Positions 21,351 through 32,512 of a DNA stretch of 64,000 nucleotides are shown piece after piece. This DNA is from Callorhinchus milii. Taxonomy: Eukaryota. Each line of letters starts with the position of its first letter. Within the stretch, counting starts at the first letter, position 1. The stretch covers positions 19,346,001-19,410,000 of the forward strand of contig NW_024704742.1 in assembly GCF_018977255.1 (NCBI RefSeq). The letters run 5' to 3'. The position numbers and the translations under genes are program-made. The notes under the pieces are model-generated. The model was not told where the DNA came from. It was given only the letters and a program-made list of their open reading frames with translations, and ran no database searches.

Positions 21351-21500
21351 TGATGTCACAGACTGCACTCCCTCCCCGGGGGGAATGACGTCACAGACTG
21401 CACTCCCTCCCCGGGGAGGGGGGTGACGTCACAGACTGCACTCCCTCCCGGGGGGGGGTGACGTCACAGACTCCACTCGGGGGGGTAGTGACGTCACAGC
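21351..21500. promoter_or_regulatory. CRE/ATF array upstream of tRNA-Asp copy 1 (4 x TGACGTCA plus 1 x TGATGTCA)
   Basis: Repeat unit TGACGTCACAGACTGCACTCCCTCC-(G)n; first site 107 nt upstream of the tRNA. Confidence 0.75.
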
Positions 21501-21524
21501 AGTCACCCTCTTGCTCTCTGCACG

Positions 21525-21960
21525 TCAACAACAACAACAACAACAAATGTCTCTCGCGGCCTCCGCGTCCCGGAGCGCTTGGCGGAGTTGGGGGAGTCTG
21601 ATCTGACCCCCGAGCCAGGGGGAGGGGGGGGCGGGGGGTGGAAGGTGGGAGGGTGGGGGGTGGTGGGGGGGGTGGAAGGTGGGAGGGTGGGGGGTGGGGG
21701 GCGGGGGGGTGGAAGGTGGGAGGGTGGGGGGTGGGGGGGGGGGTTGAGGTGGGGGGTGCGGAATGGGAGGTGATGGGGGAGGTGACCCTGAGTACCATCA
21801 AAAAGGAAGGTCGTTAGGCAGGGACTTGAACGTGTGGTGGGGCGGGGAGTGGGGCGGGGAGTGGGGCGGGGAGGTGGGGGTTGGGTGCTAAGGCGGAGGG
21901 ATTGATGGTGAGAGTTCCAGAGTTTCGGGACGCGTAGTGGATGAAAGCACGACCACCCCC
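21525..21960 (-). mobile_element. GC-shifted L2 3' fragment with an expanded G-rich tract
   Basis: (CAA)n tail on the plus strand; residual PKLWNS...LTTFLFD in ORF 21503-22048. Confidence 0.6.
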
Positions 21961-24162
21961 CCCCACCCCCACTCGGTGGAGGGGTGGGGGCGAGGGATGA
22001 ACAGGAGGCCCGAGCCCTCCGAACGGAGGCAGTGGGCGGTGGTCCCAACAGCCACCCCTCTTTTTCCTCAGCGCTTCCCGACTGCTAGGCGGGAAGTTGT
22101 CGCGCGACATTTGGCAGCTTTTGCCGCCTTTTCCCGCAAGATATGTCACTACACACCCCGGAACGTCGGGTTACTTCCCACATCACATCCCACCCCCGTC
22201 TGTGGCGCGCTCAGTAGTCTGGTTCCTGACCCACGAGGGGCCACGGTACAATGTGCTCACAAAGACCCATAGTTTTTTCTGCAGTGCACTGACCAACAAC
22301 TGAAACACGTGGGAGAATGATGATAATTGTATTTGGAAGCATTCATAGTATTCAGTGCGAGTGTTTAACTGTATTTCGATGTTGCGAGGATCGCTGTGAC
22401 CGCCATCATTTTCATGGCAAATATTGATCCGTCGCCATGTTCCATGGATGGAGTGACAAGGAAGCTACTGGTATCAGAGAGTGTTTCACTCGGCTCATCT
22501 GCAACACAAAATGAAAATTCATTGTTAGAAAATAAAGGACTTTGTGAATACCCTGTATTCAGGGCACAGCTGATGACAGCACAGTCTGGTACATCAGCAG
22601 GACCTTGAAGGGCCGACCAGTCACTGGGGGCAGGGAGTCATCCCACTCAACTCCTGTTAGCCCTGCAAGCCAAAGCCCTAATGGGTTGTGTGGTCCTAGC
22701 TGGGAAAACTTGCCTGACAGTGATATCAATGGTAAGCTATTTGGTTTTAGCTGGTTAGACTCCAGCAGTACCCCAAGCCTCTGGGGTCCCAAAGCCTTTG
22801 CTCTTGCTAACCTGCGCCTCATACTTTCGTATGAGGTAACAGGATGCATCCCTCCAGGAGAGTACACTCTCTATTCCAATAAATATCTCAGGAATTTCCA
22901 TATGTAGGGGGGATGTATGAAATTCTGTTTGGTTTGGATACTACTAACGATGGTGATGGGTTTCCAAATGTGACAGACACCTGGCTGACCAAAAACAATG
23001 AATTCCCTTGGAAATTCCCCATTAAGTTCATCTTGCAATAATGAGGCCAATTGTACACATCTGTACCATTGCAGAACATTTCTTCTTTCAGTTTAATGTG
23101 AGATAAACACAATGGGAATATGGTTCAACATGCCTCCAGTTAAACAACTGACAGGATTTTCTTCCAGCTCAGCTTCTTTCCACGATTAATTCTGGTGACA
23201 GAGGAATGGTTACTGGCAGATTGTTCCTGGATAGTTTAAGCCATTCTGGCAATAACTATTCCAGCTGTTTCCGACAATGGCTCAAGATAGGAATTATTTT
23301 GTAGCTCGTTGAAAATATAAGTTTACAACAGAAATATTCCTCCTGCTTAGTGGCAATAAATTGAAGCCACATTACATAGAACCGATGGGGACAATTCTTG
23401 ATAGAAAGGGCATTAAAGCAGGGAAGCAGTGTTTAAAATTATAATGAAAGCAGCAGGCAGGTCTGCTGTTCAATGTTTCCTGACAATCAGTTATTAAGAT
23501 AATAATAATAATCCTTGCATTTGATATAGCGCTTTTTACGTTTTCTCGACGTCTCAAAGCGTGAATTGACTGTATATTTGTGGGCGAACGCGACAGCCAA
23601 TTGCGCACAGCAATGTCCCACAAACAGTTATGGATTGACAATGACCAATTTATTATTTTTTTTTGTTTTGTTGATGGAAAGAATACAGTGCCTTTCACGT
23701 CCCAGTGCTCTCCATAAATGCAAGTTGCTGTTGATGGAAAGTACATTTCTGGTGTAGTCCAGTTATGTATACAGTGTGAAGGCGGTGATACCTGGACCAT
23801 CAACAACCAATTCCTTATTAAATAGACACCAAAACAATCCCTGTGACTGGCAACAAAGTCTCCTGTGGGTTTGACTGTCTGCACATCGACTGGAGCGACA
23901 CCTGCAGGAAGGAGAGCACAGTTACAGCTGATCAGGAGTTCACACAACAAAGCTCTGACACACAGAGGCGCGGAGTTCACTGTCAAACCGAGTACTTCGT
24001 GGCAACAAAACCACTCGGAGCCGCTGGGGCGACAAACGTACTTTTTATTTATTGTTGTTGTTGTTTAAAATAGAGTTACTATTTGGAGCAAAACCAAAAG
24101 GGAAAGAAAATAAAGCGGAGACATTGTAATTGCGAGAAAATCGGCCAAAAAAGTTGTCAGGT

Positions 24163-24234
24163 CTCCCCGGCGGGGAATTGAACCCCGGTCTCCCGCGTGA
24201 CAGGCGGGGATACTAACCACTATACTACCGAGGA
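24163..24234 (-). tRNA. tRNA-Asp(GTC) copy 2
   Basis: Identical to copy 1; T6 terminator at 24152-24147. Confidence 0.96.
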
Positions 24235-24340
24235 CCACGGCGAGCAGCCCGAACACACAGCACTTACTGTCAGCACCAACAGCCTCAGCTCCTCGGCAGC
24301 TCCGGCACAGCCTGGACTCCCTCCCGGGGGGGGGGGGGCA

Positions 24341-31079: not shown

Positions 31080-31870
31080 AACATAAGAATTAGGAGCAGG
31101 AGTAGGCCATTCGGCCCCTCGAGCCTGTCCCGCCATTCAATAAGATCATCGCTGATCTATTGTAACTCCACCTACCCACCTTATCCCCATATCCCTTAAT
31201 CCCTTTATCCACAAGAAATCTATCAATCTCAGTCTTGAATATGTTCAAGGACTGAGCATCTAGAGCCCTTTGGGGTAGAGAATTCCATAAATTCACTACC
31301 CTCTGAGTGCAGAAGTTCTTCCTCAACTCAGTGCGAAAGGGCTTACCCCTAATTTTAAGACTGTGATCCCTGGTTATAGTTTCTCCAAACAGGGGAAAAA
31401 GTCTCCCACTATCTATTAAACCTTAATAATCTTATAGGTTTCTATAAGATCACCTCTCATTCTTCTATATTCTAAGGAATATAGGCCTAAATTGCTCAAC
31501 CGATCCTCATAACTCATCCCTGGTACCAACCTACCACCCTCCAAGGTGAGTACATCCTTTCTTAAATAAGACCAAACTTACAAAAAACAATACTCTGGGT
31601 GCGGTCTAACCAGGGCCCTGTATAGTTGCAGCAAGACTTCCCTACTCTTATATCCTTTTGTAACAAATGCCAACATACCGTTAGCCTTCCTAATTGGTTG
31701 CTGTACCTGCAAACTAACATTTTGTGACTGGTGTACAAGGACATCCGAGTCCCTCTGAACGCTAACACTATCGAGTCTCTCCCCTTCTAAAAAAATAATC
31801 TGCTCAACTGTTTTTGCCGCCTCGGTGGACGACCTCACACTTTCCCACATTAGACTTCATCTCCCACCTA
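31080..31870 (-). mobile_element. CR1-clade LINE 3' fragment inserted in the fourth tRNA-Asp duplication unit
   Basis: LLQLYRALVRPHPEYC and NFCTQRVVNLWNSLP...FKTEIDRFL; CR1 3' end ggccgaatggcctactcctgctcctaattcttatgtt. Confidence 0.92.
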
Positions 31871-32245
31871 TTTGCCCACTCCCTTTGCCTATCTATGCAT
31901 TTTTTTTAAAAAATGCCATCCTCCTGTGACTGGCAACAAAGTCTCCTGTGGGTTTGACTGTCTGCACATCGACTGGAGCGACACCTGCAGGAAGGAGAGC
32001 ACAGTTACAGCTGATCAGGAGTTCACACAACAAAGCTCTGACACACAGAGGCGCGGAGTTCACTGTCAAACCGAGTACTTCGTGGCAACAAAACCACTCG
32101 GAGCCGCTGGGGCGACAAACGTACTTTTTATTTATTGTTGTTGTTGTTTAAAATAGAGTTACTATTTGGAGCAAAACCAAAAGGGAAAGAAAATAAAGCG
32201 GAGACATTGTAATTGCGAGAAAATCGGCCAAAAAAGTTGTCAGGT

Positions 32246-32317
32246 CTCCCCGGCGGGGAATTGAACCCCGGTCTCCCGCGTGACAGGCGGGGATACTAAC
32301 CACTATACTACCGAGGA
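32246..32317 (-). tRNA. tRNA-Asp(GTC) copy 4
   Basis: Identical to copy 1; T6 terminator at 32235-32230. Confidence 0.96.
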
Positions 32318-32422
32318 CCACGGCGAGCAGCCCGAACACACAGCACTTACTGTCAGCACCAACAGCCTCAGCTCCTCGGCAGCTCCGGCACAGCCTGGAC
32401 TCCCTTCGGGGGGGGGGGGGGA

Positions 32423-32512
32423 TGACGTCACAGACTGCACTCCCTCCCCGGGGGGGGGGGGAGTGACGTCACAGACTGCACTCCCTCCGGGGGGGGGCGG
32501 GTGACGTCACAG
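32423..32512. promoter_or_regulatory. CRE/ATF array upstream of tRNA-Asp copy 4 (3 x TGACGTCA)
   Basis: Same unit; first site 106 nt upstream of the tRNA. Confidence 0.75.

Follow-up and report, generated by a model that had tools for sequence, protein, structure and literature searches.

The 64,000-nucleotide stretch of elephant shark (Callorhinchus milii) genome analysed here (contig NW_024704742.1, positions 19,346,001 to 19,410,000 of the forward strand; hereafter the window, in whose own numbering all positions are given) carries four tRNA-Asp(GTC) genes of identical sequence, each preceded by an array of two to five tandem units that are built around a cAMP response element (CRE), TGACGTCA. 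[quoted passage not shown] The genes with their terminators and the arrays are as follows, the arrays being without assigned strand.

21173-21244, minus strand: tRNA-Asp(GTC) copy A (ARAGORN; Rfam RF00005)
24163-24234, minus strand: tRNA-Asp(GTC) copy B (ARAGORN; Rfam), same sequence as A
26390-26461, minus strand: tRNA-Asp(GTC) copy C (ARAGORN; Rfam), same sequence as A
32246-32317, minus strand: tRNA-Asp(GTC) copy D (ARAGORN; Rfam), same sequence as A
21154-21162 (T9, A), 24147-24152 (T6, B), 26375-26379 (T5, C) and 32230-32235 (T6, D), minus strand: Pol III terminator T-runs, 11 nt 3' of each tRNA
21351-21496: CRE array A, 5 sites, the proximal one CpG-decayed and the distal one in older sequence resembling the distal end of array D
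24341-24403: CRE array B, 2 sites and a partial distal unit
26567-26677: CRE array C, 4 sites
32423-32509: CRE array D, 3 sites

The four tRNA-Asp genes are full-length (60.5 bits each against Rfam RF00005, model positions 1-71) and show the complete cloverleaf and GTC anticodon of a nuclear tRNA-Asp gene of the type 2 Pol III class, as well as the T-run (T5-T9) that such a gene has close to its 3' end. No sequence difference exists among the four copies in the gene bodies, in the 87-nt leaders or in the trailers as far as the T-run (the first 10 bases). At its base the acceptor stem has a G-C pair; in human Asp-GTC genes this is presumably a T-A pair, which would make the copies described here a compensated isodecoder. 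The Asp copies do not have the make-up of tRNA-derived short interspersed elements (SINEs), with their tRNA-like head, body and LINE-like tail in dispersed and decaying copies, as they are identical full tRNAs within segmental duplicates and have no tail in common with the alanine-headed repeats of the window.

The motif TGACGTCA is found 14 times in the window, where 0.29 occurrences are expected and none of 100 shuffles reached 14, and 13 of these perfect sites lie within the arrays 5' of the tRNA-Asp genes; the remaining array site, at 21351-21358, is the decayed variant proximal to copy A. An initial annotation of this DNA, made from the letters alone, had described four identical tRNA-Asp genes with 5, 2, 4 and 3 CRE units and a first CRE 106-107 nt upstream of the tRNA, and both statements are borne out, the former by ARAGORN, Rfam and the motif count and the latter by proximal CREs that end at -107 (A), -107 (B), -106 (C) and -106 (D). 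Its count of 13 perfect sites and one variant likewise holds for the arrays, but it overlooked a fourteenth perfect site within the span that it covered.

27719-27726, no assigned strand: lone TGACGTCA outside the arrays, in a copy of the duplicated flank Y described below; both homologous positions are CpG-decayed

Since the array sites are tandem copies of one another, their excess over chance counts as a single event and not as so many independent sites. Even so, in 250 nt with such a composition one CRE would turn up with a probability of about 0.002, uncorrected for the choice of motif, and a consensus CRE upstream is a property of the CRE-activated type 2 Pol III promoters of the 7SL, vault and EBER type.

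The arrays have the anatomy of a minisatellite, that is, head-to-tail units of tens of bases, as seen both from repeat periods of 35-41 and from the parsing of the units. When the arrays are split at a short repeat, each unit of 30-41 bp consists of the CRE, a C run, the motif GGGAGGG and an end bearing a core of the metal-response element (MRE). The proximal end, at the distal side of the spacer between tRNA and array, is a copy of this unit that lacks the CRE, and the internal units differ from it by two substitutions that are common to all four arrays, one of which creates the MRE core. In the simplest history that we infer, the repeat began as a single ancestral CRE that lay between two short direct repeats, was duplicated there and afterwards grew in number. 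A 22-base core of the unit, allowing up to 3 mismatches, has 10 matches in the 64-kb window that was scanned, all of them in the tRNA-Asp arrays, and the suggestion that the unit is tied to tRNA genes stands within that scope. The arrays are unlikely to be an assembly artefact, as each has its own distal junction and unique surroundings, although the single-base lengths of the C runs may hold errors.

Upstream of each tRNA the spacer is identical over 87 of 87 positions in all six pairs of copies, and downstream of B, C and D a further segment has been homogenised.

21245-21331, 24235-24321, 26462-26548 and 32318-32404, minus strand: 87-nt 5' spacer
21272-21277, 24262-24267, 26489-26494 and 32345-32350, minus strand: GTAAGT hexamer at -33..-28 of the mature tRNA
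23840-24162 (B), about 26067-26389 (C) and 31923-32245 (D), minus strand: downstream homogenised segment, diverged in A
23902-23920 (B), minus strand: acceptor-like site 261 nt after the tRNA, with 12/14 pyrimidines and CAG followed by G
23060-23833 (B), 24837-25764 (C), 30448-31070 (D) and a remnant at about 20610-20715 (A), minus strand: flank X, old duplicated non-coding DNA that follows each module
22555-22998, 27537-28010 and an inverted copy at 30211-30434, minus strand: flank Y, an old non-coding duplicate with 84-89% identity over the shared core
32536-32613 (D), 22066-22143 (A) and 27362-27446 (C), minus strand: older CpG-rich upstream element, from local alignment against shuffles
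26884-27374, no assigned strand: 27-bp minisatellite, 18 copies with 97% matches, between array C and the older upstream element

From +126 to +323 downstream the three pairs among B, C and D agree at 198 of 198 positions, and B and D, which also agree at 115 of 115 positions directly beside the tRNA, are identical across the compared segments from +1 to +323, whereas A is only 64-66% identical to the others in this segment. The surrounding flanks are far more diverged: in flank X the copies of B, C and D share 81-92% of their bases, and the remnant at A is 61-64% identical to them. The homology of the flanks shows an old tandem duplication into four units, within which a module of 280-570 bp has been homogenised, and such a near-identical patch in diverged paralogous flanks is the pattern left by interlocus gene conversion. 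Furthermore, the identity of the spacer and the downstream block has a neutral expectation of 2e-9 to 3e-17, and as stretches of this kind are unlikely to be under selection at every base, the probable cause is gene conversion; we consider it strongly indicated by the alignments that it keeps the array, spacer and tRNA near-identical between copies. Concerted evolution of tRNA families has reportedly been described before. Because the 87-nt spacer is identical in all copies, most of the constant distance of the proximal CRE would follow from the spacer itself, and what is left to explain is a low variation in the length of the proximal unit, which is 41, 41, 40 and 40 in A-D despite differing C-run sequences. 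The internal units, of 30-41 nt, are irregular, and the proximal unit varies less than these (F-test p 0.007, Levene p 0.048, the copies not being independent).

The older upstream element has local scores of 72 in A and 60 in C against shuffle maxima of 33 and 40 (0 of 200 shuffles as high in each case), while it was not detected in B, where the local score of 28 was equalled in 4 of 200 shuffles; its CCAAT motif is found in the D copy only. The 27-bp minisatellite resembles the edge of this element in module C and apparently grew from it, and G-rich low-complexity repeats with three GGGCGG boxes occupy 21618-21879, between array A and its own copy of the element. In unit D flank Y has the opposite orientation to that in units B and C and adjoins flank X, and 29914-30209 matches 20234-20550 at 73-80%. 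A coding role of the flanks is rejected, given that none of 18 open reading frames of the flanks and modules (the 19th frame of that set being GASK1) and none of 21 read-through frames of the flanks matched Pfam, that no codon-position signal was seen in the gap-free flank blocks, and that no longer homologue was found for the best flank frame of 83 amino acids. The single protein match to the flank frames (P0001) is a summed-repeat artefact, with 30% identity over 46 residues occurring 17 times.

The intact CpGs of the arrays had been taken as a sign of an unmethylated germline state or of selection, and this is an argument that the array sites alone carry poorly: 13 of 14 are intact, which has a probability of about 0.09 under an assumed 10-fold CpG rate, and three young SINE copies in the window have CpG observed/expected ratios of 0.80-0.93. 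The flanks speak more clearly. In the flank copy that lies upstream of array B, CpGs lost from its homologues are retained, by 10 against 2 (sign test p 0.039) and by 7 against 0 (p 0.016), and the copy of flank Y upstream of C has a CpG at 9 of 10 sites, where its homologues have one at 1 and 3. The retention upstream of array B thus supports germline hypomethylation better than does the intactness of the arrays, and to that extent the earlier proposal survives.

Taken together, the following course of events would account for the locus. An ancestral tRNA-Asp gene, whose CpG-rich 5' region would have held a single CRE, was tandemly duplicated long ago into four units, as the homologous flanks show. 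Judging from the anatomy of the unit, the CRE had a short direct repeat on either side, and what lay between these repeats would have been duplicated into a minisatellite of 30-41 bp. Gene conversion has since then most probably held the modules alike, and the number of units may have changed where long C/G runs allowed slippage or unequal exchange. CREB/ATF-type basic leucine zipper (bZIP) factors would probably bind the unmethylated CREs and keep the region open, by analogy with other genes, and the open region would then raise the Pol III output that depends on TFIIIC and TFIIIB, in the way that a single CRE acts at the 7SL, vault and 4.5SH genes. Unit number may shift this output somewhat, as a mutational by-product and not as a dial tuned for each copy. 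That CREB/ATF sites can be upstream activators of Pol III genes, as had been pointed out for this locus, has precedent in the 7SL, vault, EBER, VAI and 4.5SH genes (PMC7279448), and substitution of the CRE lowered transcription 2.5-fold for 7SL and about 3-fold for 4.5SH (PMC7279448). Furthermore, in K562 cells ATF3 was reported at all (100%) of those human tRNA genes that form the heavily bound group (PMC7567086).

Several observations weigh against the proposed aid to Pol III and keep it tentative. Known Pol III CREs are found near -50 (-55 to -31 in Table 1 of PMC7279448), whereas the proximal CREs described here end at -106/-107 and the CREs of the four arrays span -106 to -252; in view of this difference in position the locus may work like the 7SL/vault type, but we do not class it as a member. 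Vertebrate tRNA genes are moreover said in the same paper to be without CRE sites (PMC7279448), and an intact-looking tRNA-Gly(GCC) gene of the window, at 36525-36595, has no CRE in the 300 nt upstream. The proximal CRE of copy A has itself decayed, and the unit numbers of 5, 2, 4 and 3 in A-D compare paralogues in one allele of one genome. Likewise, the CpG retention in flank Y is not significant in pairwise comparisons (3 against 0, 3 against 0 and 4 against 1), and the non-CpG differences lean towards G/C in the CpG-rich copies (19 against 6 and 14 against 5), so biased conversion could contribute to the pattern.

The most serious alternative, which we nonetheless regard as somewhat unlikely, is that the arrays have no function at all. 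A GC-rich minisatellite would then have grown in a CpG island, including a CRE by chance, and would have been carried along by conversion of the module, while tRNA output would rest on the internal A and B boxes and the -30 region alone. This notion is in agreement with the presence of other, CRE-less expansions in the same CpG-rich region, namely the 18 copies of the 27-bp repeat upstream of C and the G-rich repeats upstream of A, as well as with the lack of significance of array CpG intactness and the absence of a CRE from the neighbouring tRNA-Gly gene. It is in poor agreement with the low probability of even a single CRE so close to the gene, a value that is uncorrected for the many motifs that might have been noticed, and with the near-constant length of the proximal unit, kept within 1 nt despite its differing C runs. 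Furthermore, the distal CREs of A and D are both intact although they lie in older, mutually similar sequence in which only 34 of 49 aligned bases (69%) are identical.

A further alternative, which we consider unlikely, assigns the arrays to RNA polymerase II (Pol II), since the GTAAGT hexamer of the spacer is also a perfect splice-donor hexamer. The array would be a Pol II promoter, a short first exon would end at the GTAAGT donor (-33), and the tRNA-Asp gene would lie in intron 1; splicing would proceed to the +261 acceptor in B, C and D, giving a non-coding RNA, or from A to a coding exon of a GASK1/FAM198 gene that lies downstream of the cluster on the same strand, and cAMP or stress would act on the tRNA gene through co-directional passage of Pol II.

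16420-17465, minus strand: first large coding exon of the GASK1/FAM198 gene (Pfam PF15051, E 3e-22; next exon E 2e-31)

The acceptor-like site of this exon, at 17465, precedes a candidate ATG by about 10 nt, and the nearest GTAAGT upstream of the site is that of module A, at a distance of 3.8 kb. In CpG-rich DNA, CRE and GGGAGGG motifs belong to the usual anatomy of Pol II promoters, and both are present here. All four copies have the perfect donor hexamer, for which P is about 0.03 in 106 nt (0.07 for GTRAGT), and the acceptor-like site is present in B, C and D, where the last base of the putative intron would be 23902, 26129 and 31985, and absent in A (P 0.02-0.11 in 330 nt, depending on the rule). 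Donor and acceptor signals thus occur in order on one strand in three of four copies, with acceptor odds that depend on the rule and a donor that Pol III could explain as well, and the homogenised block ends about 60 nt past the acceptor-like site. There is also precedent for a Pol III unit in a first intron (PMC5358760). However, the hexamer is found in the most A/T-rich patch of the spacer (-38 to -27), which overlaps the TATA-like/TFIIIB position of tRNA genes, reported at -34 to -29 (PMC3082873), so that Pol III could account for it; only 5 of 8 bases are A/T at -38 to -27, even though this is the richest patch of the spacer. The thresholds for the acceptor were moreover set after the site had been seen, looser rules giving P 0.3-0.6, and the same acceptor pattern also fires on a true GASK1 exon end, that is, on a donor (12950). 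Between module A and GASK1 there are five other GTRAG donor-like sites, one of them GTGAGT; of the older upstream element only the D copy has a CCAAT motif; and the flanks are devoid of coding signal and homologues.

The most far-reaching reading is that each module is a dual-polymerase unit, in which the variable-number CRE array would drive a Pol II transcript with a co-directional tRNA-Asp gene in its first intron, the hexamer would serve both as TFIIIB contact and as splice donor, and copy A would provide a 5' exon of GASK1. We hold this to be decidedly improbable, but were it true, cAMP or stress would couple a gene of a Golgi kinase family to a tRNA cluster, and array length would be a heritable dial. 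As regards other protein genes upstream, none of 97 selected open reading frames beyond 36800 (94 of 116 listed and three from 36853-37620) matched Pfam at 0.001, in a search that could miss short exons. Of 12 sequencing runs listed, 5 from 2 studies contain part of 22300-26800, with no RNA run listed among them, which carries no weight as to expression, splicing or polymorphism.

Very little likelihood is left for a reading that builds on the initial annotation, namely that the unit numbers of 5, 2, 4 and 3 have been selected and set a graded, cAMP- and metal-responsive tRNA-Asp output for each copy. Unit number does differ while the proximal spacing is fixed, and in yeast the output within tRNA families was correlated with the number of upstream motifs (review, PMC11346459). 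The tRNAs, leaders and first trailer bases are all identical, however, which means that only the summed tRNA-Asp pool can matter, and unit number is explained by minisatellite turnover and conversion; nor would copy-specific trailer reads serve as a test, given that trailers which are alike up to the T-run cannot tell the copies apart. Internal spacing is irregular at 30-41 nt. Moreover, a larger number of units need not raise output, given that in the silkworm tRNA output is lowered by multiple TA elements far upstream (PMC3082873). As for the metal response, MRE cores do lie between the CREs of the arrays, 10 of them for 14 CRE sites (3, 2, 3 and 2 in A-D), and their presence in most units had been correctly seen. 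The core TGCRCNC is nonetheless at chance level (P about 0.42 per 250 nt and 0.08 per unit, with 44 matches in the window), stems from one internal-unit substitution, counts as one amplified event, and is missing from the older terminal segments. Regulation by MTF-1 and zinc is therefore rejected, single-event probabilities of about 0.002 for the CRE and 0.42 for the MRE making the former notable and the latter not.

The remaining features of the window are mostly repeats. ARAGORN called five tRNA-Ala genes that have shared 3' bodies, and these calls, which fit the Ala-headed SINEs of the elephant shark (PMC5499810), were set aside as SINE heads.

15269-15592, 49830-49945, 52307-52870, 54823-55208, 59624-59897 and 60589-60917: tRNA-Ala-headed SINE copies

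In the SINE copy at 52321 an 86-bp tail is tandemly repeated. The tRNA-Gly(GCC) gene mentioned above scores 66.6 bits, has a T-run terminator and a CpG-poor upstream region with a CT-repeat, and provides a natural CRE-less control. About 170 nt downstream of it, at 34372-36350 on the minus strand, there is a long fragment that looks by eye like an L2-type long interspersed element with reverse-transcriptase-like sequence, and whose CpG observed/expected ratio of 0.64 suggests youth. The first GASK1 coding exon (in the region 16060-18060) is about 80% G+C and contains a 24-bp in-frame repeat (16572-16672), with TG-type and GA-type repeats on either side.

A literature search, for which most subscription papers were beyond reach, found no report of a tandem CRE array at tRNA genes, and according to a 2024 review (PMC11346459) no regulator is described that is specific to tRNA genes and acts directly on Pol III. 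With 2, 3, 4 and 5 CREs at a constant proximal distance, the identical tRNA genes form a natural series in which it can be asked whether bZIP factors set output and whether their number of sites matters. Should the arrays be inert, the locus would be an ordinary but clean case of conversion-maintained tRNA modules and of minisatellite growth in a CpG island.

Among known systems, the locus touches on four kinds: CRE-assisted type 2 Pol III genes, identical tRNA genes regulated through their flanks, GC-rich tandem tRNA loci and minisatellites of factor-binding sites. Of the last kind is the BORIS minisatellite, reportedly a variable-number repeat of a factor-binding motif in GC-rich DNA upstream of a Pol II gene, and such promoter or CpG-island minisatellites occur at Pol II genes, whereas the repeat described here is tied to paralogous tRNA genes. 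Should the Pol II alternative hold, the MIR element in Polr3e (PMC5358760) would be comparable, as a Pol III unit that follows closely on a first exon, but there the MIR is antisense and interference is proven, while here the tRNA gene is in sense and the transcript is putative. The human tRNA macrosatellite at 1q23.3, a variable-number tandem repeat, is likewise a GC-rich, CpG-island-like tandem locus with tRNA-Asp and tRNA-Gly genes, and the polymorphic simple repeats inside its units are comparable with the arrays (PMC4041453). It differs in that whole 7.3-kb units, 98% identical, are present in 9 to 43 copies (PMC4041453), whereas here homogenisation is confined to a module of a few hundred base pairs within old, diverged duplicates, and it is the CRE unit that varies. 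The TATA-like elements of silkworm tRNA genes and the distal element of tRNA-Sec genes (PMC3082873, PMC11346459) are alike in that identical gene bodies have upstream elements differing in number; here, however, the element is a GC-rich CRE minisatellite in place of TA-rich repeats, and the proximal 87 nt are the same in all copies. The closest relatives in terms of promoter layout are the 7SL, vault, EBER1/2, VAI, 4.5SH and 4.5SI genes (PMC7279448), which share the internal A and B boxes, the A/T-richer patch near -30 and an upstream perfect CRE. Compared with the 7SL, vault and EBER type, whose CRE is located at about -50, the elephant shark locus stands apart in that the gene is a tRNA gene and that its CREs are in tandem, two to five of them, and further upstream.

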